This document shows, piece after piece, positions 1-17,294 of a stretch of DNA of 17,294 nt (positions are counted from its first letter, which is position 1; the number at the start of each line of letters is the position of its first letter). A program made the position numbers and the translations under genes. Source of the DNA: a candidate division WOR-3 bacterium (GTDB lineage: Bacteria > Hydrothermota > Hydrothermia > LBFQ01); contig JALUCS010000024.1 of the NCBI GenBank assembly GCA_027050205.1, positions 1-17,294 on the forward strand, read 5' to 3'. Below the pieces are notes generated by a model that made no database searches, was not told the origin of the DNA, and saw nothing but the letters and a program-made list of their open reading frames with translations.

Positions 1-357
1 CATCATAGCCCCTATTCTCAGGGCGAAGTGTCCCTGGGGTAGGGGCCTTTTCAATTCTTAAGCTGTGTGTTTCAAATCAAATGAATCAATTCTTGAACTT
101 ATGAGACGGAATCGCGAAAGTACTGGTATTCAACCCACCGTTCCATCAGCCAACTGACGTACCAATTCCCATCTCTAACCCAAATCGGGTGTTAGGCTCC
201 GTTAAAGGACCCTCAACGGGGGATGGCGGTCCGTTCAAAAGTGCGATTTACGGTTTTTAAGGGAATCCCCTGTCTCCGCATCCACCGTCTCCGTCCGTCC
301 ATCTACAAAACCGGTATCCTTCAATCTTTCGGCAGTGAGAGCCGGACCCCAAGAGTC

Positions 358-2127
358 CTACCTCACCACCTCCCTTACGTAGCCGCCTCCCTTACAGGCG
401 ATGAAGTATATCCTGCCTCTCTCCCTCTTGCCAACGAGCCTGCCGGAGGGGTCGTAAACCTTTCCAGTCGGCTCACACGTGCGGATGCGGGGGCTGTGGG
501 CCGGACCCTCCTCCAGACCGAGGGGTAGGGGATCCCCTGTCGCCTCCCTCCACCTCGCCGATAGGTACTGGAGGAACTGGTCGGCGAAGTGCCTGCTGTA
601 TATTATGACGATCACCTCATCGCTACGGGTGAAACCGTTGTAGCTCCAGTTGGCGGAGCCGAACTCCACGGCCGATAGGTCCCTTATGGCAAACTTGTCG
701 TGGAAGGTGTAGCCGTTGAGGTAGGGGGCGACGTAGGTCGGAGGTCCCCATGTGCGCATAACCTGACTCTCGGAGTAGGAGCTGTTCCAGTCGGAGTAGT
801 CAAAGAGGCCCACCACCGTACGGCCGGAGTTGTGGAGGATGCGGTACGCGTCCCTTATGCCGTCGTGGGTGAAGACGTTTATGCCGAAGTGTATCTGGGT
901 GGAGGTGGAGAGGATGAACCGCCTGAAGGCGTCTTCGGCCGTATCCGCTGGCGGGAACCACACCCCTATGCTCTCGGCCGGGAAGTAGTTGTCCGTGTTG
1001 TGAGTCTTCTCTGTGCCGAACCTCGCCGCGGAGGGGTTGGGGGTGTCCCCGGAGGAACCCCACATCTCGTTGAACTCCCTAAGGAACTGGCGGGCTACCA
1101 CGGGTACCCTTATAGCTGTGAGGTTGTTCACCTGAAGGGTGTCGGCGTAGACGGTGAAGTTGTACGAGCCTACCAGGACGACGTCGTTGGTGGTATCGCT
1201 GTCCCGTGTGTCTATGGAGACTATCTTCATATGCATCAGGCCGGCGTCGGAGCGGAGGGAGTCGGAGAGGACGGGTATCCCAGCGGAGCGGAGCTGGGCG
1301 ATGTAGGAGTTGTTGTGGGAGGACTCGTATATTACCCGGACCCTAACACCCCTGCTGTGGGCGTCTATGAGGGCGTCGGTTATGGTTTGGGAGGTGAGGT
1401 TGTATATGGTCACGTCTACGCTGTAGCGGGCCTTGTTTATGAACTTGGCCAGAATAAAGCGGAGGGTGTCGCTGCCGTAGTTCTTCACGATGCGGGAGAC
1501 GGTGGTATCCGTGGGTTTGTTGAAGAAGGGGGTGTAGTACCGGAGGGCTACGGGGTTTATGTCCCCGTCATCCCGTGGGACGATGCGGTAGTGGGTGTTG
1601 TACTGATCCAGTACCCCCGTCAGCTCCACCGTATCCCCGACGAAGGGGAAGTACTGAAAGGCGTCCCTGTTCAAAGCCCAGACGTCCGACCCTCCCGCCG
1701 TCAGGACGAACTCTCCCCTGCGGTTTACCCAGGCGTCCTTCACCCACCCCTCCGTCCTGACCAGGACCCCCTCAAGGCTCTCGGCCACCTCCGGCACGGT
1801 TACGTTCAAGGGAGGGATGGGGGAGCCGCTTCCGAGGACGTTGATTGAGGATAGGACTATCTCCGTGTTTTTCCGATATTCCTGGACCGTTCCGGAGACC
1901 TCTACGCTGTCCCAGAGGGAGATGGAGGGCATAGAGGCACCGGCATATACGAATATCCCGGACCACGCCCCGACGCTGTCCTGGATGTAGAAGCCCCTTA
2001 GGTCGGGGAGTATGGCCGTCACCACACCTCTTAACGTCACGGAGGTCCCCACGTACGGGGAATCCCCCGAAGGGTCGGTTGTGTATTGCACATCCCGTAT
2101 GCTCAAGGTCGTTAAGACTACGAACAC
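358..2127 (-). CDS. Secreted phospholipase D-superfamily protein (putative nuclease/phosphodiesterase) with N-terminal OB-fold region and short T9SS-like C-terminal tail
   Basis: Two intact HKD motifs (HMKIVSID...GSYNFT and HDKFAIRD...GSANWS). The N-terminal region (SIRDVQ...VTLRGVVTA...GFYIQD...SGIFVY) resembles OB folds of extracellular nucleases. C-terminus VYDPSGRLV...IYF. Start placed at GTG 2127, 6 nt after TAGAAT; the ORF-track ATG 2133 is the alternative. Confidence 0.85.
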   Translation of the reverse strand: MFVVLTTLSIRDVQYTTDPSGDSPYVGTSVTLRGVVTAILPDLRGFYIQDSVGAWSGIFVYAGASMPSISLWDSVEVSGTVQEYRKNTEIVLSSINVLGSGSPIPPLNVTVPEVAESLEGVLVRTEGWVKDAWVNRRGEFVLTAGGSDVWALNRDAFQYFPFVGDTVELTGVLDQYNTHYRIVPRDDGDINPVALRYYTPFFNKPTDTTVSRIVKNYGSDTLRFILAKFINKARYSVDVTIYNLTSQTITDALIDAHSRGVRVRVIYESSHNNSYIAQLRSAGIPVLSDSLRSDAGLMHMKIVSIDTRDSDTTNDVVLVGSYNFTVYADTLQVNNLTAIRVPVVARQFLREFNEMWGSSGDTPNPSAARFGTEKTHNTDNYFPAESIGVWFPPADTAEDAFRRFILSTSTQIHFGINVFTHDGIRDAYRILHNSGRTVVGLFDYSDWNSSYSESQVMRTWGPPTYVAPYLNGYTFHDKFAIRDLSAVEFGSANWSYNGFTRSDEVIVIIYSRHFADQFLQYLSARWREATGDPLPLGLEEGPAHSPRIRTCEPTGKVYDPSGRLVGKRERGRIYFIACKGGGYVREVVR

Positions 2128-2133
2128 CTCCAT

Positions 2134-2165
2134 ATTCTACCGCCGCAACACGGCCGCCGTAAAAT
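2134..2165. promoter_or_regulatory. Back-to-back divergent -10 boxes (TAGAAT on -, 2134-2139; TAAAAT on +, 2160-2165)
   Basis: Each hexamer lies exactly 6 nt before an in-frame start codon (GTG 2127, ATG 2172). Confidence 0.7.
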
Positions 2166-2171
2166 ACCCTT

Positions 2172-4061
2172 ATGATGCTTCTGCTCTCCTTCTTTCAGGT
2201 GAAGGACGCCTGGCGGCCGGAGGAGCCTTTCCTCCTGAAGTGGCATAAAACGGTGGGGTACCACCTCTACGATTGGCCGGACGTTGAACCTCCCCCCTAC
2301 GACGTCAGGAAGTACGTCATAAGGATGGGGGTCTGGGGTGGAACGGTACAGTACGCCCACACTACCGTTAAGGTGGTTGGTAGGTACGCCACCGATACCA
2401 TCATCCTCAACTTCAACTGGGACCCCATAGACAGCGTAAAGTACAACGGCAACCCTATCTCCTTCTACACGACCGGTGCGGACACCTCCCGAAAGCTCGT
2501 CCTTCCCCTCCCCTCAACCCTAAACCCCGGAGATACCGCCCTCTTGGACGTCTTCTATCACGGCTACCCTCCCAGTTCGGGGTGCATGGGGTACGGCGGA
2601 GGGATGAGCATCCAGTCCCCCAGCTGGGTCTATACGGACAACGAGCCTTACGGTTTGAGGTGCTGGGTCCCCTCCTACGACCAACCTTACGAGAAAGCGG
2701 ACGAGGGGGTGGAGTTCTATATAACCACGGACAGCAGCCTTGAGGTCGTGGCGAACGGCCTACTGCAGGATACGACGGCGTCAGGCGCATTTAAGACGTG
2801 GCACTACGCCCATTCCCACCCTATAGCCCCCTACCTCATAACCTTCGCCATAAGGGACCTAAGGGCGAAGGAGTGGACCTGGACCTACGGCTCCATAACC
2901 ATGCCCGTAAGGGCCTGGATACTGGCCAGCGACACCGACACCGTCTGGGGGAACCGCCTGACGGAGATGCTTACGGCCTTCTCTATAAGGTACGGGGTGT
3001 ATCCCTTCCACAACGAGAAGTACGAGGAGAGCGCCGTCCTACCCGGAGGCTGGGCTATGGAGGACCAGACCAACTCCTTCTTCGGTGGGTACTACGCCGG
3101 GTGGGTGGAGGCCCACGAGCTTTCCCACCAGTGGTGGGGAGACAACGTGACGTGCGGCACCTTCAAGGACATCTGGCTGAACGAGGGTTTCGCCACCTAC
3201 AGCGAGATGGTCTGGAGGGAGCATGTGGGCGGATGGGCGGCCTACCGGAGTTACTACGACAGGCGGGCGGACTCCACCATCTTCACCTACGCCTCCAACC
3301 CCGGCAAACCCGTCTACAACCCCGGTCCGGGTATGGGGGACGCCTTCTCGGTCTATACCTACAACAAGGGGGCAGCCGTCCTCCATATGCTCCGCTACGT
3401 CCTTGACAAGGATACCTCTCTCTTCTTCGGGGCTTTGAGGTACTACAGGAGTAGGCACGAAGGCTCCTACGCCCTGACCAGCGACTTCGTAAGCGATGTC
3501 CAGACCTACACCGGGCGGGACCTCTCCTGGTTCTTCAACGAGTGGGTTTATGAACCAGGTTGGCCGGTCTATAACGTCCGGTGGAACAGGTTCAACGACG
3601 GTGGGGGCTGGAGCATACTGCTTCAGGTTGAGCAGACCCAGCCTTCCGGGGCGCCCACCTTCAAGATGCCCATAGAGGTTAAGGTATTCACACCAACTGG
3701 AGACACCACCGTGGTGATATGGGACAGCCTTGACGTCCAGCACTTCTGGATAACCGTAAGCGACAGGCCGGACAGCATCCTGTGGGACCCGGACAACTGG
3801 GTCTTGGAGCAGCACACCGTAGCCTACGACCCCTCCCTCACCGTTGGGGAAGCCGCAGAGCCGAGGAGCCGGGACATAACCGTAAGGGTTGAGGGGAGCA
3901 GGGCCGTGATACTTCCGCCCCTCGGCAGCGATGAGGTGGCCGTATACGACCCCTCCGGCAGAAAGCTGGCCACCGGTAGGGGTAGGTTGGAGGTCCGTTT
4001 GAGGGCCGGGGCCTACTACGCCGTAAGCGGTGCCAAGGTGAAGGCCTTCGTCGTAAGGTAG
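2172..4061 (+). CDS. M1-family zinc aminopeptidase with T9SS-like C-terminal sorting domain
   Basis: HELSHQWWG...WLNEGFATY (HEXXH-x18-E), GAMEN-like WAMED and YNKGA. C-terminus VAVYDPSGRKL...GAYYAV...KAFVVR. Confidence 0.92.
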   Translation: MMLLLSFFQVKDAWRPEEPFLLKWHKTVGYHLYDWPDVEPPPYDVRKYVIRMGVWGGTVQYAHTTVKVVGRYATDTIILNFNWDPIDSVKYNGNPISFYTTGADTSRKLVLPLPSTLNPGDTALLDVFYHGYPPSSGCMGYGGGMSIQSPSWVYTDNEPYGLRCWVPSYDQPYEKADEGVEFYITTDSSLEVVANGLLQDTTASGAFKTWHYAHSHPIAPYLITFAIRDLRAKEWTWTYGSITMPVRAWILASDTDTVWGNRLTEMLTAFSIRYGVYPFHNEKYEESAVLPGGWAMEDQTNSFFGGYYAGWVEAHELSHQWWGDNVTCGTFKDIWLNEGFATYSEMVWREHVGGWAAYRSYYDRRADSTIFTYASNPGKPVYNPGPGMGDAFSVYTYNKGAAVLHMLRYVLDKDTSLFFGALRYYRSRHEGSYALTSDFVSDVQTYTGRDLSWFFNEWVYEPGWPVYNVRWNRFNDGGGWSILLQVEQTQPSGAPTFKMPIEVKVFTPTGDTTVVIWDSLDVQHFWITVSDRPDSILWDPDNWVLEQHTVAYDPSLTVGEAAEPRSRDITVRVEGSRAVILPPLGSDEVAVYDPSGRKLATGRGRLEVRLRAGAYYAVSGAKVKAFVVR

Positions 4062-4084
4062 GGGCCAGCGGTAAAATGGGCGGC

Positions 4085-5536
4085 GTGAAGGTCCTGATAG
4101 CCAACCGGGGGGAGATAGCCATCCGGGTCCACCGGACCCTCTCGGAGATGGGTTTCAGGAGCGTCGGGATATACACGGAGGCAGATGAAGGGTGGCCCTT
4201 CACCTACGAGTTGGACGAGGTCTATCCCGTAGGTTCCTACCTCGCCATAGACGAGATCTTAGACGTCGCCCTCAAGAGTGGGGCGAGGTACGTACATCCG
4301 GGATACGGCTTTCTAGCCGAAAATCCTGACTTCGCCCGGAGGGTGAGGGAGAGGGGCCTCATATTCGTGGGGCCTTCCCCGGAGGCCATGGAGATGGTGG
4401 GGGACAAGGCGAAGGCCAAGGAGGTAGCCCGTAGGGTTGGAGTCCCCACCGTCCCCGGCTCCGAACCGTCGGACGACCCCGACACCGTCCTGCGGGCGAT
4501 AGAGGAGATAGGCCTGCCCGTCCTCCTCAAGGCCGTCGCCGGAGGGGGCGGTAAGGGTATGAGGGTTATAGATAGGGGAGAGAACGTAAGGGAGGCCGTA
4601 CTCTCCGCACAGAGGGAGGCCCTTGGGGCCTTCGGGGACCCCCGCCTGATGGTTGAGAGGTACGTATTCCCCGCCCGCCACATAGAGGTACAGGTGGTGG
4701 CCGACGGCAGCAGCGTCCTCATCCTCGGTGAAAGGGAGTGTTCCCTCCAGAGGAGGCACCAGAAGATAGTGGAGGAGACGCCATCGCCGGTACTGGACGA
4801 CGAGAAAAGGCAGCGGCTGTACGATTACGCCCGCCGGATAGTTGAGGGGGTAGGATACACCAACGCCGGTACGGTTGAATTCCTCTACGATGAGGAGAGG
4901 GGGGAGTTCTACTTCCTTGAGGTGAACGCCCGCCTCCAGGTGGAGCATCCCGTAACGGAGATGGTGACGGGCCTTGATCTGGTGCGGCTCCAGATGGAGG
5001 TGGCCTCCGGTGAAGGGTTGAGCGTCCGTCAGGAGGACGTGGCCTTCAGGGGTGCCGCAATAGAGGCCCGACTCTACGCCGAGGACCCGGAGAGGGACTT
5101 TCTGCCATCCTCCGGTAAGTTGGAGGCCCTGGAGTTCCCCCATATGCCCGGCGTCAGGATAGATACGGGGGTGATTGAGGGGACGGAGGTCTCCCACCTC
5201 TACGACCCTATGATAGCGAAGGTCATAGCCTACGCCCCCGACAGGGATCAGGCCCGCAGGAGGCTCATAAACGCCCTGAAAGGTACCCTACTCTTCGGCC
5301 CCAAGACCAACCTCCACTTCCTGATCTACCTCCTTGAGAGCGTGGAGTACGCATCCGGCAAAACCTACACCCACACGGTTGGGGAGGTGCTAAGGAGATA
5401 CCTGAAGGAGGACTTCCGGCTGCCGGAGGACATAGAAGAGTTCGTAAGGGGGCTGAAACTAAGGCCAAGGAGCGTAGGGACGCAACCGGAGGATACCGCC
5501 CTATACACCCGCGTTAAGGCGGGCCTGTACCCGTAG
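4085..5536 (+). CDS. Biotin carboxylase (acyl-CoA/pyruvate carboxylase BC subunit), no fused biotinyl domain
   Basis: KVLIANRGEIA, HPGYGFLAEN, GGGGKGMR, RECSLQRRHQK, EVNARLQVEHPVTE and YDPMIAK. GTG 4085 is preferred as start (7 nt after TAAAAT 4072-4077) because the ORF-track ATG 4076 overlaps the -10 box. Confidence 0.92.
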   Translation: MKVLIANRGEIAIRVHRTLSEMGFRSVGIYTEADEGWPFTYELDEVYPVGSYLAIDEILDVALKSGARYVHPGYGFLAENPDFARRVRERGLIFVGPSPEAMEMVGDKAKAKEVARRVGVPTVPGSEPSDDPDTVLRAIEEIGLPVLLKAVAGGGGKGMRVIDRGENVREAVLSAQREALGAFGDPRLMVERYVFPARHIEVQVVADGSSVLILGERECSLQRRHQKIVEETPSPVLDDEKRQRLYDYARRIVEGVGYTNAGTVEFLYDEERGEFYFLEVNARLQVEHPVTEMVTGLDLVRLQMEVASGEGLSVRQEDVAFRGAAIEARLYAEDPERDFLPSSGKLEALEFPHMPGVRIDTGVIEGTEVSHLYDPMIAKVIAYAPDRDQARRRLINALKGTLLFGPKTNLHFLIYLLESVEYASGKTYTHTVGEVLRRYLKEDFRLPEDIEEFVRGLKLRPRSVGTQPEDTALYTRVKAGLYP

Positions 5537-5564
5537 CCCAACGGACGTATAATAGGGGGCGACC

Positions 5565-7136
5565 TTGATAAGGAGACTGACCGTAAGGGATTACCTCCTA
5601 TTCGGTGCGGCGACTCTGGAGCTGGGGAGGGGTTTCAACGTCCTCTCCGGCGAAACGGGGGCAGGTAAGTCCCTCCTGATAGACGCCATAAACCTCCTCG
5701 CCGGTGGGAGGGTGGATTGGGATTCCGTGCCGAGGAGGGCCTATCTGGAGATGGTCCTGGAGGGGGACAGAGACATGGAGGCCTCCCTAAGGGACCTCGG
5801 CATCCCCTACGACGGGGAGGTGGTCGTAAGGCGCACGTTGAACCCGGCCACCCGGAGGTCCCGCATCCTCATCAACGACATGCAGGTCTCCGCCTCCACC
5901 GTCAGGAGGCTCCTTGAGGGGAAGATCTTCGTAGGCTCCCAGTTCTCCCATATGGCCGTAGATGACCCCCACTTCCAGACGGAGGTTCTGGACAGGTTCA
6001 CCGGCATAGACCTCGGAAGGTACCCCAGCCTCTACGCCGAGTACGTTGCCAAGAAGGAGAGGATGAGGAGGTTGGAGAGCCGTCTGAACGAGTTAAGGGA
6101 GAGGGAGGACTACCTCCGGTTCCAACTGGAGGAAGTCAGGAGGTTGGGGTTGAGGGAAGGGGAGGAGGAGGATCTGCTCCGGAGGAGGGAGGAGTTAGAG
6201 GAGAGCATAAGGGCGCAGGAGTGGAGCGGGAGGTTCAGGGAGGTGTATCCCAGCGTACGGGAGGCCATCGCCTCCCTCCTTAGGGATGCTCCGGAGAGGT
6301 TCAGGGGGAGGTTGAGGGACATCCTTGACACCCTTACGGACATAGCCCTTGAGGTGCCGGAGGAGTGGGAGGACCTTCAGGAGGAGTTTGACAGGATAAA
6401 CGCCCGCCTGTACGAGATAGGTAGGCTGAAGAGCAAGTTCCGTACGGACTTCGCCGGACTCCTCAAACTGGAGACCTCCCTTGAGGAGGAACTGAAAGCC
6501 ATAGGGGAGATGGAGGAGGAGGTGGAGAGGCTCCGGAGTGAGCTTATCCTCCTTGAGGAGGAGATGGGGAGGCTGGCCGATAGCATAGACGCCGAGAGGA
6601 GGAGGTACCTCAAGGACTTCGCTGCCTACATAGGGGAGAACCTGAAGGCCCTCGGATTTGAGTACGTCAAGACCTCCGTAAGGTTGGAACCTTCGGATTT
6701 CCACGTCAGGGGTAAATCCTTAGTGCGTATTCTCATCTCCACCATCCCCGACGTCCCACCCCAGGAGTTGGCTCACCTCTCCGGTGGTGAGCTTGCCCGT
6801 ACCGCCCTCGTCCTCTTCTCCACGGGGGCATCCCACTTCCGCACCCTCATACTGGACGAGATAGACGTGGGGGTAAGCCCCTCCGTGGCATCCCGTATAG
6901 GGAGTCTCCTGAAGGCCCTGTCCAGCGACGTGCAGATTATAGCCATAACCCACCAGGCCTCCACGGCCTCCTACGCCGACAGGCACTTCGTAGTTGAGAG
7001 GTTGTCCCCCGCCGAAGCCACCGTCAGGGAGGTACGAGGAGAGGAGAGGTGGAGGGAACTGGCCCGTATGATGGGGGTATCCGACCCCGACCTCGCGAGG
7101 GCCACCTTGGAAACTACAAAAAATAGAACCCTCTAG
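5565..7136 (+). CDS. recN: DNA repair protein RecN (SMC-like ATPase)
   Basis: Walker A GETGAGKS, central coiled coil, signature LSGGE, Walker B LILDEID, ITHQ and ELARMM. TTG start preceded by TATAAT (5548-5553) and AGGGGG. Confidence 0.9.
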   Translation: MIRRLTVRDYLLFGAATLELGRGFNVLSGETGAGKSLLIDAINLLAGGRVDWDSVPRRAYLEMVLEGDRDMEASLRDLGIPYDGEVVVRRTLNPATRRSRILINDMQVSASTVRRLLEGKIFVGSQFSHMAVDDPHFQTEVLDRFTGIDLGRYPSLYAEYVAKKERMRRLESRLNELREREDYLRFQLEEVRRLGLREGEEEDLLRRREELEESIRAQEWSGRFREVYPSVREAIASLLRDAPERFRGRLRDILDTLTDIALEVPEEWEDLQEEFDRINARLYEIGRLKSKFRTDFAGLLKLETSLEEELKAIGEMEEEVERLRSELILLEEEMGRLADSIDAERRRYLKDFAAYIGENLKALGFEYVKTSVRLEPSDFHVRGKSLVRILISTIPDVPPQELAHLSGGELARTALVLFSTGASHFRTLILDEIDVGVSPSVASRIGSLLKALSSDVQIIAITHQASTASYADRHFVVERLSPAEATVREVRGEERWRELARMMGVSDPDLARATLETTKNRTL

Positions 7137-7151
7137 CTTAAAGCATTTGTG

Positions 7152-7170
7152 GGGGGAGGATACCTCCCCC
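7152..7170. terminator. GC-rich hairpin between convergent recN and the rpsL-rpsG-orf114 operon
   Basis: GGGGGAGG-ATA-CCTCCCCC forms a perfect 8-bp stem. There is no clear U-tract on either strand. Confidence 0.5.
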
Positions 7171-7172
7171 GA

Positions 7173-7517
7173 TTACGCTTCCAACTCCTTTATCCGCCGC
7201 TCAAGGGTCTCGGCGGTGATGAAATCGTTGTTCTTGTACTCCAGGACTAAGGCCTTGACCACCCTCCGCCTCTCGCTCGCTTTCATATTGGCGAAGGAGT
7301 CTCCGACGACGTTTTGCCAAGCGTCTACCAACTTGACCAACCGCCAACTCTTCATATGGGTCGGGTACTTCATGAGCATACGGTTGGCCAACTCCCTCGC
7401 CTCGTCGTACTTACCTACGACCAGGAGGTCCTTTATCTTGGCGAAGGCCTTGTCCAACTTGGAGTTTATCTTCCTCTTCTGCTGCTTCGCTATCTGGTAC
7501 TGCTTCCACCTGCTCAT
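7173..7517 (-). CDS. Hypothetical basic helical protein (114 aa) directly downstream of rpsG
   Basis: ATG 10 nt after the rpsG stop with a GGGG SD-like tract and host-like codon usage. 26 K/R versus 14 D/E. TPR-like segment GKYDEARELANRMLMKYP. Confidence 0.75.
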   Translation of the reverse strand: MSRWKQYQIAKQQKRKINSKLDKAFAKIKDLLVVGKYDEARELANRMLMKYPTHMKSWRLVKLVDAWQNVVGDSFANMKASERRRVVKALVLEYKNNDFITAETLERRIKELEA

Positions 7518-7527
7518 ACCGAACCCC

Positions 7528-7995
7528 CTACCACCTGAAGTGAGCGAATACCCTGTTGGCCTCGGCCATCTTGTGGACGTTCTCGCGGGTCTTGACGGCG
7601 TTCCCGGTACCCTTGTACGCGTCTATGATCTCGGCGGCGAGCTTCTCGTACATACGGCGGCCCGGCCTACTGCGGGCGGCCCTGATTATCCACTTTATGG
7701 CTAGGGAGGTCTGACGCTTTGGACGGACCTCAACCGGTATCTGGTAGTTGGCTCCACCGATACGGCGAGAACGGACCTCAACGGACGGCTTCACGTTCTC
7801 TATGGCCTTGTGGAATACGTCAAGCGGGTTCTCCCCCGTCCTCTCGGCCACCAACTCCATGGCCTTGTAGAAGATCTTCTGGGCCTTCGTCTTCTCGCCG
7901 TCCCACATGAGGTTGTTTATGAACTTGGCCACAAGCTCACTCTTATAGACGGGATCCGGTACGACCTTCCTCTCTGGCGCCCTTCTCCTTCTCAT
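7528..7995 (-). CDS. rpsG: 30S ribosomal protein S7
   Basis: [31 protein letters not shown] and [15 protein letters not shown]. Strong SD AAGGAGG upstream. Confidence 0.99.
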
Positions 7996-8009
7996 AGCTC
8001 CTCCTTTGA

Positions 8010-8384
8010 TTAGTCCTTAGGCTTGGGGGTGCCGTACTTTGAACGCGAGTTCCTACGGCCAGCGACGCCGGCGGCGTCGTAAACGCCCCTTACGATGTGA
8101 TACTTCACGCCGGGCAGGTCCTTAACTCGCCCGCCCCTGACGAGAACCGTAGAGTGTTCCTGAAGGTTGTGGCCTTCACCCGGTATGTATGCTATGACCT
8201 CCTTACCGTTGGAAAGCCTCACCTTCGCCACCTTCCGCAGGGCCGAGTTGGGCTTCTTGGGTGTCGTAGTATAAACGCGTATGCACGTCCCCTTCTTCTG
8301 GGGGTTCCCCTCCAAAGCCGGGGACTTCGTCTTTTTCTTCCTCTTCTTCCTACCGTACCTCACTAACTGGTTGATGGTTGGCAT
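8010..8384 (-). CDS. rpsL: 30S ribosomal protein S12
   Basis: [34 protein letters not shown] and RVKDLPGV. Confidence 0.99.
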
Positions 8385-8407
8385 AGGCGGGTATTATACT
8401 GGGGAAA
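8385..8407 (-). promoter_or_regulatory. Putative leaderless promoter of rpsL (TTTCCCCAG-TATAAT-ACCCGCCT-ATG)
   Basis: Perfect TATAAT (8393-8398) 8 nt before the ATG, with no SD. Near-identical to the element upstream of rpmH. Confidence 0.75.
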
Positions 8408-8423
8408 AGTTTGGAATGCCGCC

Positions 8424-9209
8424 TTAGGCCCCCATAGCGGAGTACCTCTTCAGGCCGAGCCTCCACAGGAACCGGTTTATGATGAGGGCGGCGACGAACC
8501 ACATAGCCATCACCCCTACGCCGCGGGCGAGGTCCACTTCTTTGCCGAGGAGTATGTTGACGGGGAAGTTTATCATGTAGGGGAAGGGAGTCCAGAGGAC
8601 GAACTCCCTTACGGCTTCGGGGAAGAGCTTCAGGGGAGCGACGTACCCCGACAGGAAGAGGAAGACGAGGAAGTGGAGGTCCTCAAAGGCTACGACCCTC
8701 TCCATCCAGAAGGCGAGCATAGCAAGGCTGTACTGTATCAGAAAGCGGGTAGCGAAGGCGAGATGTACGACGAGGAGGAAGAGGAGGACGTCCGTAAGGG
8801 AGGGGATCCAGAGGGCCTTGGGGTAGAGGAGGAAGAACAGGAGGATGAGGGCAGCGAGGAAGGGGAGGCGGGAGAGCCTCTCGGCGAGGTGGGTTGAGAC
8901 GTACCGCCATATGGGGTCCATAGGCTGGAGGAGGTAGTGGGAGAGGTGGCCGTAGAGTACGTCCTCCTCAAACTCCCATATCACCCAGACGGCTATGAGC
9001 TGGTGGGTTACGAAGACGGCGAGGTAGTACCGAGCGAACTCCACGGGGGAGATGCCGTAGTCGTGCTGGGAGGCGGCCGTCATCCATACGGCCATCAGGA
9101 TAAAGGGGAGGATACCGGCGAGCATCCACAGGACTATCTCGGCCCTGTACTCCAACATATAGGCGTAGTAGACGGATACGAAGGTCCGGAGTCTCCTTAG
9201 AAGGCTCAC
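8424..9209 (-). CDS. ABC-2 family transporter permease (ABC2_membrane_6-like)
   Basis: About six hydrophobic segments and the motifs [30 protein letters not shown] and GLKRYSAMG. The GTG start overlaps the EF-G stop (GTGA). Confidence 0.85.
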
Positions 9210-11269
9210 AGGTTGCCCGCCTGCCAGTCCTCCGCGGGGCGGAAGGTTATGTCCTTTATGTCGTAGGTGGCCCTGCCCTTTGAGGCAGAGCGGAGGTTGT
9301 CGGCGAGATCAAAGGTGTTCTTCAACGGGAGGACGGCCTCAACGACCTGATAGCCGAACTCCTCCCTCACGTCCCTTATGTCTCCTCCGAGGGTCCTCAA
9401 GGTGTCCATTATCTTACCGAGGTACTCTCCGGGGGTCTGTACGACCACCCTCGCGTAAGGCTCCAAGAGGATAGGTCCGGCGGAGTTGAGGGCCTCCGTC
9501 AGGGCCTTCAGGAAGGCCGCACGGGCGGCGAGGGGGGTTATGTCCTCCGGGTTCTCCACCTCCACCGAAACCCTTACCCCCTTGAGGGGATACCCCATAA
9601 GGGGACCGAACTCCATCGCCTCGTAGAAGGTCTTCCTTAGGGCCTCCTCCACCGGCCCCATCTCCACCCCCTCAACGGTGAGGTGGTTCCCCTCATCCCC
9701 GGAAGGTTCAACCTTCACCCTGACCTTTCCCCTGTGTATGGCGTCGGCCGTCTCCTGATGGAACTCGCCCTTGGCCTCCGCCTCCTTAGTTATGGTCTCC
9801 CTGTAGGACACGAAGGGCCTACCCGTCCTCACCTCAAGGTTCATGTCCTCCTTGAGGCGGCTCACCACCACGTCCAGGTGGAGCTTTCCCATCCCCGTCA
9901 GGACTATCTGCCCGGTACTCTCCTCCTTCCTCACCTTGAGGGACGGGTCCTCAACCTCCAGGAAGTGAAGGGCCTCTTCCAGGGCCTCGGCGTCCTTTGA
10001 GTACTTTGGCTCCACCCTTACGGAGACCAGAGGCTGCGGGAAGTCCATCCTCTCCAACTCCACCGGCTCCTCCCGCACGGTTACGGTGTCCCCCGTCTGC
10101 GTCCTGTCGGACAGGCCCACGAGGGCGACTATATCCCCCGCCTTGGCCACCTGTAGTTGCTCCTTCCGGTTGGCAAACATACGGTATATGCGGGTGGCCC
10201 TCATCGTCTCACCCGTGCGGGGGTTGTAGAGTTTCGTCATAAAGGTTATCTCACCACGGTATATCCGCACGTAGAAGAGCTTCTGCTTCCCCTTCGGGTC
10301 TATCTGGATCTTGAAGACCTGGGCGACCAAGGGTCCCTCCCCCGTCCTTATCTCAACCCTCTCCCCGTTCTTCCTGCCAACGACGGGGGGGACGTCCAAG
10401 GGGGAGGGGAGGAGGTCCACTATGGCGTCTATGAGGGGCTGGATCCCCTTGTTCCGGAGGGCAGAGCCTACGAATACGGGGAAGACCTCCCTCTTCACCA
10501 CGGCCTCCCTTAGGGCCTTCTTCATCCTCTGGGGAGAGACGCTCCCCTTCTCCTCGTACTCCTCCAATATCTCCGGGTCGTAGTCGGCGAGCCTAAGGAC
10601 GATATCTTCGTAGTAGGGCAGGATATCCTCCGTAAGGGCAAGGTCCTCCGTCCTGTACTTCTCGCCCGTTTCGTCTATGTCCCAGATGTACTCCTTCAGG
10701 TCTATCAGGTGCTTCACCCCGACGAAACCGTGTTCCTCACCGATGGGGAGGGTTACGAGGAGGGGGTCTATACCCAGTCGCTTCCTCATTCCCTCAATCG
10801 TCCTCTCGTGGCTCGCCCCTATGCGGTCCATCTTGTTGATGAAGACGATGCGGGGGACCCCGTACTTGTCAGCCTGACGCCAGACGGTCTCGCTCTGCGG
10901 CTCAACCCCCTCAACGGCGCTGAAGATTACGACGAGGCCGTCCAGGACCTTCAAGGCCCTCTCAACCTCAACCGTGAAGTCTATGTGGCCGGGGGTATCT
11001 ATGATGTTTATCTGGTGTCCCTTCCAGAAGGTGGTGACGGCGGCGGAGGTTATGGTTATCCCCCTCTCCTTCTCCTGCTTCATCCAGTCCGTCGTGGCCG
11101 TACCGGTGTCTACACTCCCCAACTTGTGGGTGCGGCCGGTGTAGTATAGGACCCTCTCGGTGGTGGTAGTCTTACCGGCGTCTATGTGCGCTATGAAACC
11201 GATGTTCCGTATCTTACTTAGATCGTACTCCTCCCCCTTTCTGGGAGCCTTCCCCTTCTTCTTGGCCAT
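9206..11269 (-). CDS. fusA: Elongation factor G family GTPase, divergent paralog with degenerate domain IV
   Basis: [64 protein letters not shown] and LLEP. The domain IV consensus loops are absent, so it may not be the main translocase. Confidence 0.85.
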
Positions 11270-11277
11270 GGCTTCCC

Positions 11278-11412
11278 TTAGACCGTGAGCCTCTTACGCC
11301 CCTTCCTGCGACGGCGTTTCAGTACCTTCCTCCCTCCGGGTGTCCTCATCCTCGCCCTGAAGCCGTGCGTCCTCTTCCTCTTACGACGGGAAGGTCTGTA
11401 GGTGATAGACAT
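11278..11412 (-). CDS. rpmH: 50S ribosomal protein L34 (44 aa; absent from the ORF track)
   Basis: Manual translation: [44 protein letters not shown]. Contains the HGFRARM..GR..L.RRR.KGR signature. Confidence 0.97.
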
Positions 11413-11435
11413 AGGCGGCTATTATACTGGGGAAA
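11413..11435 (-). promoter_or_regulatory. Putative leaderless promoter of rpmH (TTTCCCCAG-TATAAT-AGCCGCCT-ATG)
   Basis: TATAAT (11421-11426) 8 nt before the ATG. One mismatch to the rpsL upstream element. Confidence 0.75.
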
Positions 11436-11436
11436 G

Positions 11437-12081
11437 CTACCCTACGAAATCCCGCAGGTAGGCGAGGAGGCCGTCGGATATGGGGCTGGGGTGCCTCTCC
11501 GGGTGCCACTGGACGGCGAGGACCTTTAGGGTGTCCGACTTGAAGGCCTCAACGAGGCCATCTTCGGCCCTCGCCAAGATCTGGAGGTCCTGGACCTCCG
11601 TCGGCAACACCTTCACCCCCTGATGGTGGCGGCTGTTTACCACCCCCCTCTCCCCGAAGGCTCTCTGGAAATCTCCCTCAAACAGGACGGGGTGGAAGGC
11701 GTCTCCCTTCTCCACCCTGTGCGTCTCGGCCCTGAAGCCCGCCCTTCCGAGGTCCTGGTAGAGCTTGCCGCCGAGGACGACCGTAAGGACCTGGATCCCT
11801 CTGCATATGCCGAAGATGGGCTTACCGTCCCCCAAGGCCCTCCCTACGAGGGTCATCTCCAACCGGTCTCTCCCCTCGTTCAACTCAAGGAGGTCCGGAT
11901 ACTCCACCTCTTCGCCGTAGTATCGGGGATGGACGTCCTCACCGCCAGAGAGGACGAGGAGGTCATATTCGGGCATCCGGGCCTCCTTGGGGGTTATTAC
12001 GTCCACTTCGCCGAGGGGGGACAGGTACCGGACGTACCTCTCCGCCTTTCCCCTCTCGCTGGCCGTTATCAACACCCTCAT
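11437..12081 (-). CDS. Class I glutamine amidotransferase, peptidase C26 / gamma-glutamyl-GABA hydrolase family
   Basis: LSGGEDVHP, GICRGIQ (catalytic Cys), VNSRHHQ and VQWHPE. ATGA overlap with the upstream gene. Confidence 0.9.
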   Translation of the reverse strand: MRVLITASERGKAERYVRYLSPLGEVDVITPKEARMPEYDLLVLSGGEDVHPRYYGEEVEYPDLLELNEGRDRLEMTLVGRALGDGKPIFGICRGIQVLTVVLGGKLYQDLGRAGFRAETHRVEKGDAFHPVLFEGDFQRAFGERGVVNSRHHQGVKVLPTEVQDLQILARAEDGLVEAFKSDTLKVLAVQWHPERHPSPISDGLLAYLRDFVG

Positions 12082-12791
12082 AGGACTTTGAACACCTTTA
12101 CCCGCTTCCCTATCCTGACAACCACCACCCCGCCCTCCGGGAGACGGAAGGTCCTCCTCCCGAAGAGTATGCCGGCGAAGGTGAAGGCTACCCTACCGTT
12201 TATGCCGTAGAGCCTTACGCTTACGGCCTCTCCCCTGGCCTCTACGGTTAGGTCCCTACCCTCTAAGATGGCTCCGCCGTTGCGGGCGATTTCGGAGACG
12301 GCCACCGAGGGCATCAGGGTATCTACAAAGGAGTAGATGTTGTCTCCAGAGGAGTTCCCGTTGCCATTCGCAGCGTTCCCTACGGCGTAGATGATGATGG
12401 GACCGGAGTAGGTGGAGGCATCGGGGGTGGTGTACTCAAAGGTGAAGGCGAAGCTGTCCACGGAGTAGGGGGCGTTGTCGTGGGTGGCGTACCCTCCGGG
12501 CGTTACGTTGGTGTTGGGTCCGGCCTCGGCGAAGGTGCCGACTATGTTCCCGGCCGTATCTTTGGCCACCATCTCGCAACCGTACCGGTTGGCCGTACTG
12601 TCCCACACGACCACCGTAAGGGTGTAGGTGGTGGAAGGCTCGTAAAGGGTGGGGAGTCCGGCGACGTACACCCTCCCCGGCCCGGAGTTCAGGGTACCCG
12701 TATGACAGGAGGTGCAGTACCTGTTGTAAGGAGGATCCCCCGCGTACCCCTCCGGGGGTACGGTGGAGTAAGAGAGCATCACGAAGAGCAT
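12078..12791 (-). CDS. Secreted Reeler-like (choice-of-anchor V type) protein with CxxCH motif and T9SS-like tail (237 aa)
   Basis: PPEGYAGDP...CTSCH, YEPSTTYTLTV and GNAANGNG..SGDNIY; C-terminus RLYGINGR...KVFKVL. Start moved to ATG 12791 (6 nt after TACAAT 12798-12803); the 24-codon upstream extension in the ORF track does not look coding. Confidence 0.75.
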   Translation of the reverse strand: MLFVMLSYSTVPPEGYAGDPPYNRYCTSCHTGTLNSGPGRVYVAGLPTLYEPSTTYTLTVVVWDSTANRYGCEMVAKDTAGNIVGTFAEAGPNTNVTPGGYATHDNAPYSVDSFAFTFEYTTPDASTYSGPIIIYAVGNAANGNGNSSGDNIYSFVDTLMPSVAVSEIARNGGAILEGRDLTVEARGEAVSVRLYGINGRVAFTFAGILFGRRTFRLPEGGVVVVRIGKRVKVFKVL

Positions 12792-12900
12792 ACGTGGATT
12801 GTAAGGGAGACAGGGGACCGAGGTGCAGCCTTGCCGAAGGTTGGTGCGAGGTCTTAGTTTCAACTCTTCGTTGATGGGAGGAATCTTAAAGTGAGGCTTA

Positions 12901-13635
12901 CGGTTTATTAAAGCCCAAGTTTCAATTTCTTAAAGTCTTACTTGCAGTTTTTGAAAAGGTGTTGTTCGGCGTCAAACGACGGGTGAAGATTGTTTTTGTT
13001 AATTTTGCAATAATTTGTATTAAAATCACTAAAATTTTTTAAAGTTAAACTTTTAGTTTCCGAAGGTACGGAATACCAAATTCCTTAACGGAGACTGCGG
13101 GAATTTGCAGTGAAACCGACGGTTCTTGAAAACGCATCCGAACGTTTGCCCATCTCTGTGATCCCCCTATTCACCGAACACAGGTTTTTACTCTGCGGAC
13201 GGGGTGATGCTAACCTACGAGGGGACAAAAGTCCTGAAATTAAACTTCAACTTTTTTTAAAGATAAAATGCAGATTTATACAGTATCAACACAAACTAGT
13301 AGAAAAGTATCATTTTGCTAGCTTAACACTGATTTTTAGAGGTGCGAATGGGTCTATCCTCCCCACCGGCGTAATGTAAAAGTTAAACCCCAATTTAAGA
13401 AAAATTTCAATTATTACTTCGCAAAAATGGCGAAATTATGAGGTAATGCAGATACACATCTTAGAGCTTACGGCGGCGTAAGTGTGCGTAATATCGGGTA
13501 CGATGGGGAACCTTCACCGCACCCTTGGAACGTTTAAAATTCCGTAATACGGGTTTTGAGAATTTTGAAACGTAATTTGCGATTTATTAAATCTCAAGTA
13601 TCAATTTCTTGAAGTCTGACTTTCGGTTTTTGAAA
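12901..13635 (+). repeat. Pair of 56-bp imperfect direct repeats (12901-12956 and 13580-13635) bounding an AT-rich non-coding island
   Basis: cggtttattaaagcccaagtttcaatttcttaaagtcttacttgcagtttttgaaa versus cgatttattaaatctcaagtatcaatttcttgaagtctgactttcggtttttgaaa: 48/56 identical without gaps (manual alignment). Confidence 0.85.
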
Positions 13636-13701
13636 GTGGGAAACCCTGTCGGCCAACGGGAGACGGTGTATCCGATTGCGGTCCAAAATCCGTTATCCCC
13701 C

Positions 13702-15081
13702 TTAGCGGTGTTCGGCCTCCAGAATCTCTATCTTCAGCGAGCCTATGACCGCCATTATGGTGGCCTGCTTTTCAAGGCTGCCGTGCTGTAGGGCTATGCG
13801 GTAGGGTCTCGCCGGGAACTCCCCATAGACGGGGTCTATCGGTACCCAACGGCCACCGAGCCAGGAGACGTTCCAGGCGTGGTAGTAAAAACCGTCCCCC
13901 TGATAGACCAACCCCACCATTATGTCGGTAGGGATGCCGGCGGCTCTGGCGAGGGCGGCGTACAGGGTAGCATGCTCGTTGCAGTCGCCGTACCTCTGCT
14001 TCAGGACCTGCTTGGCCGTGGGTATGGTGACGGAACCCCGCTTCTCAAGGTTGCTGTAGACCCACTCCATTATGGCCCTCGCCTTATCTACGTCCGTCCT
14101 CTTCCCGGCAGTTATCTCCTCGGCCAAGGAGTGGATTTCGGGGTCATCTACCTCAAGGAACTGGGTGGGCTGGAGGTACTTCCTTAGGCTGTCGGGAATG
14201 CGTGGTTTTGCGGAGCCTTTGAGGGATTCGGGGTACCTTATATCTACAACGAAGGTGTCGCCGGAGACATTCAGCACCCTCTGGTTAGCGAAGTTGAGGG
14301 TCAGGTCTCCCTTCAAGGGATACATCTTGACGACGAGGCGTACGAGGTCCTTCAGGTCGCCGATGGGCTTGCCCGTAGGCCGTACGGCGTACAGGGACAG
14401 GACGTTGAAAGGCTCAACGGGGGCCTTTGCCCTCTCCGGAGGTTCCGCCACTATGTCCATCTTTAAGGGTTGGTTCTGGAGGACGAGCTTACCGTCCCTG
14501 ATGTGCGCCCTAACGACTATGCCGTGGGCGTCCAACTTCCAGAGGGTGTCGCTCTCCCTTACGACCTCGGCGTCCATGAACGAGGCGACGGACGGGTCAA
14601 AGTAGGAGTACCTCCCCTCTTTGAGTAGGCCAACGGTAGCGGCGAAGACGAAGGTCTGGGGGGTCAGGAGAGGTCCGACGAGGTCGTACTGGAACTTCTG
14701 GGGTGAGCCTTTGAGCGGTTTGTAGGTCACGTAGAACTTTCCATCCCTAACCTCCCCGCTGGCCTCAACCGTCGCATCCTGGGTCGTCATGCTGAAGTTG
14801 AAGCTCCTTATCCCCCCGTCCCTCCCCACCGTAGCCCTCTCCCTCGTCCTCATCTCCTTTATAAGGCCAAGCATTATCACCTTTAGGTACATCTGCTCAC
14901 GGAAGTCCCAGAGGCTGTCCTTCCTGTAGGCCTCCATCTCCTCCCAACCCGCCCTCTGGCCAAGCATATAGACGCTGCCGACGAAGTGGAAGTCCGGGGC
15001 CTTCTCGCCTACCGAGTCGGTCCGGCCCTTCCCCTGACCGCAGGAGAGGAGTACCGCCGCGAAGAGGATAAACCGTCTCAC
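13702..15081 (-). CDS. Transglutaminase-like (cysteine protease fold) lipoprotein
   Basis: Lipoprotein signal MRRFILFAAVLLS|C. Catalytic triad in GDCNEHA, YYHAWN and WVPIDP, plus LARAAGIP. GTG start 6 nt after TAGAAT (15088-15093). Confidence 0.85.
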   Translation of the reverse strand: MRRFILFAAVLLSCGQGKGRTDSVGEKAPDFHFVGSVYMLGQRAGWEEMEAYRKDSLWDFREQMYLKVIMLGLIKEMRTRERATVGRDGGIRSFNFSMTTQDATVEASGEVRDGKFYVTYKPLKGSPQKFQYDLVGPLLTPQTFVFAATVGLLKEGRYSYFDPSVASFMDAEVVRESDTLWKLDAHGIVVRAHIRDGKLVLQNQPLKMDIVAEPPERAKAPVEPFNVLSLYAVRPTGKPIGDLKDLVRLVVKMYPLKGDLTLNFANQRVLNVSGDTFVVDIRYPESLKGSAKPRIPDSLRKYLQPTQFLEVDDPEIHSLAEEITAGKRTDVDKARAIMEWVYSNLEKRGSVTIPTAKQVLKQRYGDCNEHATLYAALARAAGIPTDIMVGLVYQGDGFYYHAWNVSWLGGRWVPIDPVYGEFPARPYRIALQHGSLEKQATIMAVIGSLKIEILEAEHR

Positions 15082-15147: not shown

Positions 15148-17294
15148 ATGGCACAGGAGGTTAAGAAGCCGGAGCTGGAGTTTGACTACAGCAAGTACGG
15201 CTTTCGCGACGAGATAGAGTACAAGTACATCGGGAAGCCCGGTCTCTCCCGCCAGCTCATAGAGGAGATCTCCCACATAAAGGGAGAGCCGGACTGGATG
15301 CGGGAGATACGCCTTAAGGCGTACGAGGCCTTTATCCGTATGCCCATGCCCAAGTGGGGGCCGGACCTCTCCGAGGTGGAGAGGATGTTTGACAAGATAG
15401 TGTATTACGCCTCACCCACCGACCCCAACCGTAAGGCTCGGACGTGGGACGACGTCCCCGACTCCATCAAGAGGACGTTTGAGCGACTGGGGGTGCCGGA
15501 GGCGGAGAGGAAGTGGCTGGCGGGCCTGGGCGCCCAGTACGACAGCGAGGTCGTCTATCACAGGATAAGGGAGGACCTTGAGAGGAAGGGGGTCATCTTC
15601 GTGGATATGGATACGGCCGTCCGGGAGTACCCCGACCTCGTCAAGGAGTACTTTGGCACCGTCGTACCCTACGCGGACAACAAGTTCGCTGCCCTCAATA
15701 CGGCCGTGTGGTCGGGTGGCTCCTTCGTCTACGTACCCGCCGGGGTGGAGGTGGACTTCCCCCTCCAGGCCTACTTCCGGATAAACCTTGAGAACTTCGG
15801 CCAGTTTGAAAGAACGCTTATAATCGTTGAGGAGGGGGCTAAAGTGCATTATATTGAAGGTTGCACCGCACCTATCTACTCCTCCGGTTCCCTCCACTCC
15901 GCAGTCGTTGAGGTGATAGCCAAGCGAGGCTCCCACGTCCGTTATACCACCATCCAGAACTGGGCGAAGCACATATACAACCTCGTGACGAAGAGGGCGG
16001 TCGCCTACCGGGACGCCTTCGTGGAGTGGGTAAACGGGGAGCTGGGCTGCCTGACGGGAGACTCCTACATCTTCAAGAACAACGACGTGGTCCCCATAAA
16101 GGACATAAACGTCGGAGACTACGTCTGGTCCCTGACCCCGGATATGAAGATAGTGCGGAGCCGGGTCGTTGCTAAGAAGGTGAATCCCCCGCGTCCCGTG
16201 TATAGGCTCCTCCTCCAGAACGGCCGGGAGGTCAAGGCTACGGACAACCATCCCTTCCTCGTCCTCAGAAAGGTTGGCAAACTCCTGACCCTCGGATGGA
16301 TGCCCCTGTGGGATATAAGGGAAGGGGACTACGTCGCCATAGCCGGGAGGATACCGGATCACGGCAAACCCTATACCCTCAACTTCACACCGGAGCGCAG
16401 GGGGAACAAGCCCGTTAAACTCCCGGAGAGGACCACGGAGGACCTGATGTGGCTCCTCGGTTTCTATCTGGGGGACGGCTATACGGACGACAACCGCATA
16501 TACTTCGCCGTACCGGAGGACGACCCCGCCGAGCCGAAGGTACGCCGTATCTTTGAGGACGTATTCGGCATCAAACTCCAGAGGAGGGGGGTCGTTCTCA
16601 GAACGGGGAGCGTGGAGATAGTGGATTTCATAAGGAGTATAGGACTCGGAGGGAACGCCAGAACGAAGCGGGTCCCCGATTGGGTATATACCCTGCCGGA
16701 GAGCCAGCGGAAGGCCTTTATACAGGGATACATAGACGCCGACGGTCACGTCAGAAAGGGCCACAAAAACCTCACCATCACGAGCGCCAACAGGGAACTC
16801 CTTGAGCAGATAAAACTCCTCGCCATGTCCGTCGGTATGAATCCCACGAAGATCACCCGACATGTAAGAAAAGAGAAGTTGCCCCTCGGAAAGGAAGAGA
16901 AGACTTATATCACGTACTTCCTCCACTTCTCCAAGGAGGAGATAAACGCCCCGGTACACTTCGTCAAAGTTGGCAAGGTGGAGTACGTGGGTGAGGAGGT
17001 AACCTACGACATAGAGGTGGAGGGGACGGCCAACTTCATAGCCAACGGCATCTTCGCCCACAACAGTAAGGTCACCATGAAGTACCCCGGTGTCATCCTC
17101 AAGGAGCCGGGGGCCAGGATGGAGCTTCTCACCGTCTCCTACGCCGGCAAGGGCCAGATTCAGGATAGCGGAGCCAAGGCCATACACCTCGCCCCCTACA
17201 CCACCTCCACCATAACCTCCAAGTCCATATCCAAGGACGGCGGCAGGGCCTCTTACAGGGGGCTGCTGAAGGTCGTAAAGGGCGCCCATCACGT
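15148..17294 (+). CDS. sufB: Fe-S cluster assembly protein SufB, intein-containing, truncated at the window end (absent from the ORF track)
   Basis: Manual translation: MAQEVKKPE...EPDWM...AQYDSEVVY...[21 protein letters not shown]...GQFERTLII...YIEGCTAP...LHSAVVE...YTTIQNW...EWVNGELG-[intein]-SKVTMKYP...[10 protein letters not shown]. No stop codon before the edge. Confidence 0.96.
16048..17064 (+). mobile_element. Intein (339 aa) with LAGLIDADG homing endonuclease, in frame within SufB after Gly300
   Basis: Block A CLTGDS, block B ATDNHPF, endonuclease motifs LLGFYLGDG (16453-16479) and [10 protein letters not shown] (16717-16746), block F VTYDIEV and block G ANGIFAHN followed by Ser+1. 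Removing it restores the SufB motif [12 protein letters not shown]. Confidence 0.96.

Follow-up and report, generated by a model that had tools for sequence, protein, structure and literature searches.

Ultra-short, uncharged N-termini on envelope proteins of a WOR-3 bacterium, putative truncated Sec signals

We analyzed a 17,294-nt stretch of DNA from a hydrothermal-vent bacterium of candidate division WOR-3, class Hydrothermia (GenBank GCA_027050205.1, contig JALUCS010000024.1; contig C24 here and, over its whole length, "the window"). Three of its proteins, a PLD-like nuclease, an M1 aminopeptidase and a choice-of-anchor V domain protein, carry tails resembling the C-terminal domains (CTDs) of type IX secretion system (T9SS) cargo. 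All three have an uncharged N-terminus of 6–7 residues, with the start 6 nt past a −10 box (TA-N-AAT). Such short starts are real and lineage-wide, and most of the genome's predicted exported proteins have them in place of the ~20-residue signal peptide usual in other bacteria. They are probably truncated Sec signals, which would pass SecYEG by means of SecA without the signal recognition particle (SRP) and be cut by a single LepB.

Short starts in the window, the genome and the phylum

The genome holding the window comprises 2.05 Mb in 135 contigs, is 93.5% complete and has 57% GC. Its 1928 genes were called by our own caller, and several starts are visibly mis-called. The closest named homolog of the PLD-like protein belongs to Ca. 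Caldipriscus (57% identity); named protein homologs are mostly from WOR-3/Hydrothermota, one being labelled Thermotogae. The phylum sample consisted of 201 WOR-3 genomes, 63 of them in the window's class, with families coded f13, f20, etc.; because of their kinship these relatives are not independent samples.

An earlier reading of the window from its letters (the sequence-only reading) had described three ultra-short uncharged N-termini, in-frame stops (TAG at 2137-2139, TAA at 2160-2162) that bar longer signals for the PLD and M1 proteins, and a lipoprotein at 15081 with an ordinary MRR start, h-region and lipobox. The sequence bears out all of these (Table 1). The M1 start MMLLLSFF was confirmed as short, but the signal most likely ends at Ser6, as judged by eye from orthologs. 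The third protein, then called "CxxCH/Reeler," does have the CxxCH motif; its family is the NCBIfam choice-of-anchor V (NF041895), and no relative of it was found in the PDB. In the PLD gene an alternative ATG at 2133 adds just two residues (ME). The frame of the choice-of-anchor V gene is open for 46 codons upstream; the nearest 22 codons of that stretch are non-hydrophobic, and the closest homologs begin at the short Met. An assembly slip at the start sites is unlikely, since one contig of a sequencing run (possibly the source of the assembly) spans window positions 1500-2900 with 0 differences. Two −10 boxes lie back to back in the 44 nt (2128-2171) that separate the divergent PLD and M1 genes.

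Table 1. Coordinates of the features discussed, with supporting evidence (window positions unless a locus is named)
Feature	Position	Strand	Evidence
PLD-like nuclease, N-terminal OB-type region and CTD-like tail, 589 aa from GTG	358..2127	-	PF13091 E 2.6e-37; partial NucT and ExeM matches; leave-out tail HMM E 1.1e-6
Predicted 7-residue signal MFVVLTT, predicted mature start L8 (LSIRDVQ)	2107..2127	-	ortholog register
−10 box TAGAAT, 6 nt before PLD GTG, includes in-frame TAG	2134..2139	-	sequence; box model score 7.3
−10 box TAAAAT, 6 nt before M1 ATG, includes in-frame TAA	2160..2165	+	sequence; box model score 8.3
Predicted 6-residue signal MMLLLS (then FFQVK)	2172..2189	+	family orthologs start MMFLVS, MLVFLTS, MLLLIS-Q, MLYALA
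M1 aminopeptidase with CTD-like tail, 629 aa	2172..4061	+	PF01433 E 5.3e-26; leave-out tail HMM E 1.3e-14
Choice-of-anchor V domain protein (CxxCH motif), CTD-like tail, 237 aa	12078..12791	-	NF041895 94.5 bits (cut-off 42), match from residue 9; leave-out tail HMM E 6e-6
Predicted 7-residue signal MLFVMLS, predicted mature start Y8 (YSTVPP)	12771..12791	-	homolog register
−10 box TACAAT, 6 nt before choice-of-anchor V ATG	12798..12803	-	sequence; box model score 7.4
Transglutaminase-like lipoprotein, normal basic n-region (MRR) and lipobox, internal control	13702..15081	-	PF01841; −10 box score 8.9
YajC	L121:61-384		family match
PntB	L128:16678-18111		family match
CitMHS_2	L130:2787-4175		family match
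Na/Pi transporter	L146:61-1977		family match

A TIGR04183 search gave no direct match to the three window tails; they matched only a genome-specific hidden Markov model (HMM) seeded on TIGR04183 hits (67 matches, from which 54 proteins entered the seed), and this model converged on 125 CTD proteins. When the HMM was built without the three window proteins, their tails were still matched (Table 1), the best reversed decoy having an E-value of 0.038. Two T9SS components pass their NCBIfam cut-offs and start short, namely SprA (TIGR04189, 317.7 bits vs. 200) and a PorV-family protein (NF033709, 132.7 bits vs. 90); BamA likewise passes NCBIfam and starts short. The Pfam PorV model PF19572 had no match in the genome. 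GldM/PorM (TIGR03517) was found in 0/21 genomes, but the control genomes matched none either.

Short uncharged starts were found on 87 of the 125 CTD proteins and normal signals on 17; contig ends truncate another 3, and the remaining 18, which by eye include normal, short and mis-called starts, could not be classified. Across all CTD proteins of the genome, where the sequence-only reading had sought a check of its claim, ordinary signals are thus in the minority (17/125 vs. 87/125). Among genes with a strong −10 box, 70/89 CTD genes had an uncharged-hydrophobic start, as opposed to 128/795 other genes (p = 2e-33); in the comparison set of internal Met positions the count was 26/756. The short-start CTD proteins have no K/R at positions 2–6 by selection, and at positions 7–9 K/R amounts to 1, 0, and 2%. 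One CTD-like open reading frame (ORF; G000:C81:441-3161) has a tail unlike the rest of the set and is possibly a bin contamination.

A further 216 non-CTD proteins fit the short-start pattern, bringing the short starts to 303 overall. We scanned 130 of these 216, and 66 had a Pfam family; general knowledge of the families places 33 of these clearly in the periplasm or outer membrane and 13 in the inner membrane, and leaves 8 cytoplasmic look-alikes and 12 ambiguous cases. The 33 exported proteins include SprA, BamA, two more Omp85 proteins, LptD, SurA, Skp, LolA, TolC, TonB receptors, FadL, PCuAC and DsbA. Among 60 control proteins (of 110 drawn), none of the 40 with a family was clearly exported, at a stricter E-value than for the short starts. 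Short starts are therefore general to the envelope, and their assignment to T9SS cargo in particular was not upheld, as BamA, LptD, SurA, Skp, LolA, TolC and TonB receptors carry them too. Lipoproteins differ: 73 have a basic n-region, and an early Cys is seen in only 12/303 short starts, few of which resemble a lipobox. No lipobox Cys was found in the three window proteins. The short signals contain no Arg and hence no twin-arginine motif; TatC is encoded, and the motif occurs in 2 other ORFs. The inner-membrane proteins YajC, PntB and CitMHS_2 and a Na/Pi transporter (Table 1) have a short hydrophobic leader before the first family-matched segment.

Homologs of the M1 protein are present in 124/201 genomes of the phylum. 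By eye, the shortest starts (5–8 residues, at the loci examined) belong to the window's family and order; starts of 8–11 residues are found in most other families of the class and in f13, f20, f23, f24, f26, f28, f30, f31, f33, and f39, and mostly normal signals in f14, f15, f17, f32, and f35 (loci examined). Two single-copy markers are patchy: the short form of Skp is largely confined to the window's order, and the protein encoded next to lepB switches between short and normal from family to family. Many genomes therefore use both kinds of signal.

The −10 box stands 5–10 nt before the start in 906 of the 1928 genes; because it precedes about half of all genes, leaderless architecture is general in this genome. 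It is carried alike by short-signal (71/87) and normal-signal (11/17) CTD genes (p = 0.19), and short signals are also found behind Shine-Dalgarno starts. We therefore rejected a link of short signals to leaderless translation, which the sequence-only reading had suggested.

Predicted cleavage position

In the short CTD starts the hydrophobic run breaks at positions 5–8 in 86/87. The first non-hydrophobic residue at position ≥5 is A/S/G in 72/87 and Thr in 13, compared to 47% A/S/G for internal hydrophobic stretches. (This internal comparison replaced a shuffle test of the small last residue, 71/87 vs. a mean of 31, which was partly circular and not used.) Gln occurs at positions 6–11 in 69/303 short starts against 27 expected; the residue before it is S/A in 62%, with Leu at −3 in 57%. 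By eye, the normal signals of the genome mostly also end in L-x-A/G.

The same position is marked by paralogs, orthologs and domain boundaries. Within the genome, several pairs of a short and a normal paralog coincide in register at the predicted cut: MVLFLIS|QSVSQ vs. ..GGLYA|QPYAQ, MVLMLFVA|QFPP vs. ..SLEA|QVPP, and MLVAIIS|IPAFAR vs. ..PLWG|IPTYAR. Pfam mature domains of short-start proteins begin at residues 8–12 (CarboxypepD 8, POTRA 9, PCuAC 9, SurA_N 12, OmpH 12). PLD orthologs start xFFLLPA-LSIRDVQ or MLFLLS-LTIRDVQ, and normal-signal Bacteroidota homologs continue QTIxEIQ in the same register by eye. Choice-of-anchor V homologs P0271-P0275 and P0278 have 6–8 uncharged residues ahead of YS, and P0279 has a normal signal ending AVWA, then FSSNPP. 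In the lepB-neighbor family the leader before a fixed motif (found in 83/120 homologs) is bimodal, 8–13 vs. ~20–33 residues. Across orthologs the stretch keeps its hydrophobic character while its sequence diverges.

From the register, the domain starts and the small end residue, the short peptide would sit where the last 6–8 residues of a normal signal would be. We infer that it stands in for that piece, and cleavage is predicted after it. The second residue is bulky in 247/303 short starts, so the initiator Met would be retained.

Translocation machinery and rival explanations

The genome encodes SecY, YidC, TatC, deformylase and one LepB, which keeps the catalytic Ser/Lys and aligns normally to E. 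coli LepB. An Fmt-like match (G000:C15:42312-43229, 175.9 bits) is below cut-off and has one TGA inside the matched stretch. SecA was not found in the assembly. It is present in 193/201 genomes of the phylum and in 7/10 genomes of the window's family, and the sequencing run that holds the window unchanged also contains a contig with most of secA, ~90% identical to that of a congener and at similar depth (274 vs. 251). The gap is thus likely one of binning; we rejected a loss of SecA, which is very likely present in the organism. Synteny is unable to place the gene, as three close relatives differ in the order of genes around secA.

No Ffh/FtsY match (PF00448) over cut-off was obtained in the genome, in any of the 63 class genomes, or in families f13, f25, f26, and f28; such matches were found in 120/201 genomes overall, and f19, f23 and two f27 genomes gave a single weaker match. 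This pattern suggests stepwise or repeated loss. SRP RNA (RF00169) was not found in the genome. Short starts are used as well in WOR-3 families that have SRP, so they are not caused by its loss, and a strict tie between the two was rejected.

In 62/63 class genomes the SecY residue corresponding to E. coli S405, in transmembrane segment 10 (TM10; G000:C95:13091-13122), is Arg; the one miss is in a genome that is 86% complete. This Arg was present in 0/16 aligned non-class WOR-3 sequences and in 1/150 diverse SecY representatives. The pattern search also matches Ser AGY codons, and its 7 non-class matches (f23, f27) are Ser, not Arg. According to the accessible text of the sources, T404 is a channel-lining residue immediately under the pore ring, to which I408 belongs (PMC2171872), TM10 is a hotspot for super-active SecY variants (PMC13537251), prlA changes in TM10 include L407R and I408N (PMC11494458), and translocons of the prlA type tolerate missing or defective signals in the proteins that they export (PMC11494458, PMC2171872). 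The TM10 Arg is a candidate for a relaxed SecY gate or relaxed proofreading. It follows the class and not the short signals, and is thus not the whole explanation. Only three SecY columns, all weak, separate short- from normal-signal families. A single-sequence SecY fold was discarded (predicted local distance difference test, pLDDT, 44).

In the truncated Sec signal that we propose, Met would be followed by ~4–7 hydrophobic residues and a small final residue. The protein would be released to SecA, its short hydrophobic N-terminus would engage SecY, the chain would be translocated, and LepB would cut after the small residue. The free amino group of the retained Met would be the only positive charge, and the TM10 Arg may loosen proofreading in the manner of laboratory prlA alleles. 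From the periplasm, the SprA/PorV-family barrel would take CTD cargo across the outer membrane. A co-adapted minimal export in Hydrothermia, combining the lack of SRP, a natural prlA-like SecY Arg and signals of 6–8 residues that approximate the peptidase-bound piece, is a more tentative proposal that we regard as rather doubtful.

Several points weigh against the truncated-signal explanation. Export and cleavage are predictions from sequence, and the starts depend on our own gene caller with its visible mis-calls. A peptide of 6–7 residues is too short for a bilayer-spanning helix, which leaves the opening of the lateral gate without explanation. Short signals of other families often end in a bulky residue before Gln (..LLMV-Q, ..IVL-Q, ..LVF-Q), a poor fit to the −1 rule, and the last residue of MFVVLTT is Thr. 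Skp and the lepB-neighbor protein still have normal signals in many members of the class. SecA is missing from the assembly. Families f20, f24, f30, f31, f33, and f39 use short starts yet keep SecY Ser/Thr and SRP; an S405 variant is not named in the accessible text of PMC11494458, PMC13537251, and PMC2171872; and the pore-ring change I187A in SecY was rejected as special, as 69/150 representatives have another residue there.

The bulky residues before Gln in many relatives would also fit a peptide that is targeted to Sec and then either kept as a hydrophobic tag or trimmed by a periplasmic or membrane protease other than LepB. In textbook geometry the peptide is too short to bring a cleavage site to the periplasmic face; the genome encodes an S49 peptidase and an Rce1-like protease; and no PF05096 glutaminyl cyclase was found to account for the Gln, the animal-type enzyme not having been searched. 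We nevertheless consider retention or trimming by another protease unlikely, given that the hydrophobic run ends in A/S/G in 72/87, that several pairs are in exact register with the predicted cuts of normal paralogs, and that Gln is enriched at +1 as in Bacteroidetes substrates of signal peptidase I (SPase I), as described in the accessible text of PMC5837995. It is quite unlikely that a separate or repurposed route, by YidC or by a targeting factor replacing SRP, reads the short signal. Such a route would agree with the absence of Ffh/FtsY matches in the 63 class genomes and of SRP RNA in the genome, with the coexistence of two signal classes (73 n-region lipoproteins vs. 12 short starts with early Cys), and with the short leader that YajC, PntB and CitMHS_2 share as membrane proteins with an N-terminal extension. 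It is at odds with the size of the cargo, which reaches 1851 aa in SprA and is far beyond known YidC substrates, with the free swapping of short and normal signals between paralogs and orthologs, and with short signals where SRP is present. The sequence-only reading had seen here a candidate for an undescribed export system; its non-canonical signal stands, but a new system is not required, given SecY, YidC, an ordinary LepB, a SecA that is very likely there, and paralogs that swap signals.

That the N-termini are vestigial, with targeting left to the mature domains and a permissive translocon, is highly improbable. The tolerance of prlA-type translocons cited above and the TM10 Arg of the class SecY speak for it; the conserved character of the diverging stretch and the rarity of K/R at positions 7–9, outside the selected positions, speak against it. 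An artefact, with true starts upstream that give normal signals or with proteins that stay in the cytoplasm, is scarcely credible. The starts are known from sequence, and 8 of the 66 classified short-start proteins are cytoplasmic look-alikes, but an in-frame stop lies ≤12 codons upstream in 44/87 short CTD starts, 47 cases with an open frame show no hydrophobicity over the 10 codons upstream (mean −0.33, maximum 1.32), the −10 box is placed 5–10 nt before the start, orthologs agree on the short starts, and BamA, LptD and SprA are unable to function in the cytoplasm.

The gene after lepB (L050:2171-3382) belongs to a family with at least 8000 matches named "asparagine synthetase B." No Pfam domain is on record for it and it has export signals, so the name is probably wrong. 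The one gene considered as a partner of the short signals, it was rejected since it is not adjacent to lepB in 30 loci (~1.5 kb flank).

Relation to known systems and other features of the window

The classical h-region has ~7–15 residues within a peptide of roughly 20. The short starts resemble a classical Sec/SPase I signal in being N-terminal and hydrophobic, with a small end residue, the same cargo classes and swaps between paralogs. They differ in having no basic n-region (70/89 boxed CTD starts are uncharged), no separate polar c-region, no helix-length h-region in a ~20-residue peptide, and mostly Leu, not Ala, at −3. Their total length is ~5–9 residues in the window's family and 8–11 in other WOR-3 families. 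The lack of the basic n-region and of the length sets them apart from Sec/SPase I signals, for which the accessible text of PMC9360617 and PMC6589146 gives n-h-c regions and a −3/−1 rule. The short starts likely work like a Sec/SPase I signal; they are not of the Tat, SRP or lipoprotein type.

As in the Q-rule of Bacteroidetes SPase I and T9SS cargo (PMC5837995), Gln follows the predicted cut and CTD-like tails, SprA and a PorV-family barrel are present; the Bacteroidetes signals in that account are full length, unlike those here, and the PF05096 cyclase was not matched in our genome. The change in SecY resembles E. coli prlA/TM10 variants (PMC11494458, PMC13537251, PMC2171872) in being a non-conservative TM10 substitution, adjacent to T404 and three residues before the pore-ring I408. 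Unlike those variants, Arg405 is natural and class-fixed, its effect is putative, and it is not in all short-signal families. SRP genes were not found, as in Leptospira (PMC10066597), but that source, in its accessible text, reports no short signal peptides, whereas here they occur also in SRP-bearing relatives. Cyanobacterial PsbK/PsaK carry a few uncharged hydrophobic residues cut after a small residue, a parallel that our literature search did not confirm and that serves as no more than a lead; they are small thylakoid membrane proteins, unlike the large soluble and beta-barrel cargo here. That search, with subscription journals and supplements mostly outside its scope, found no description of short signals or SRP loss in WOR-3, and neither PMC12285271 nor PMC12542636 uses the word "signal" in its main text.

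If the explanation by truncated Sec signals is true, these peptides would show the lower limit that nature sets to a bacterial export signal, and the need for an n-region and a helix-length h-region, as well as SecY proofreading, would become directly testable. Matched short/long paralogs, a single candidate SecY residue and a cultured member of the class, strain sy37, provide ready test pairs; sy37 has inner and outer membranes (PMC12285271), its class assignment being taken from PMC12542636 (both in their accessible text). If co-adaptation were true, one SecY substitution would let E. coli export on seven-residue uncharged signals, and the n-region and a membrane-spanning h-region would be dispensable in the signal code. 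Much of the phylum's secretome would probably escape predictors that were trained on normal signals.

Elsewhere in the window, a SufB-like ORF (15148-17292) appears by eye to contain an intein, which includes a homing-endonuclease region, starts with a Cys near CLTGDS and ends HN before S. Between 7173 and 11412 lie genes that we take from their sequence to be rpsL-rpsG, followed by an ORF of 114 aa of no assigned kind and not by fusA; what is presumably an EF-G-like gene (687 aa) lies upstream of rpsL-rpsG, behind a short L34-like ORF. An ABC-2 permease stands between the EF-G-like gene and rpsL-rpsG. In this 57% GC genome, window positions 1-340 and ~12870-13700 are AT-rich non-coding stretches.

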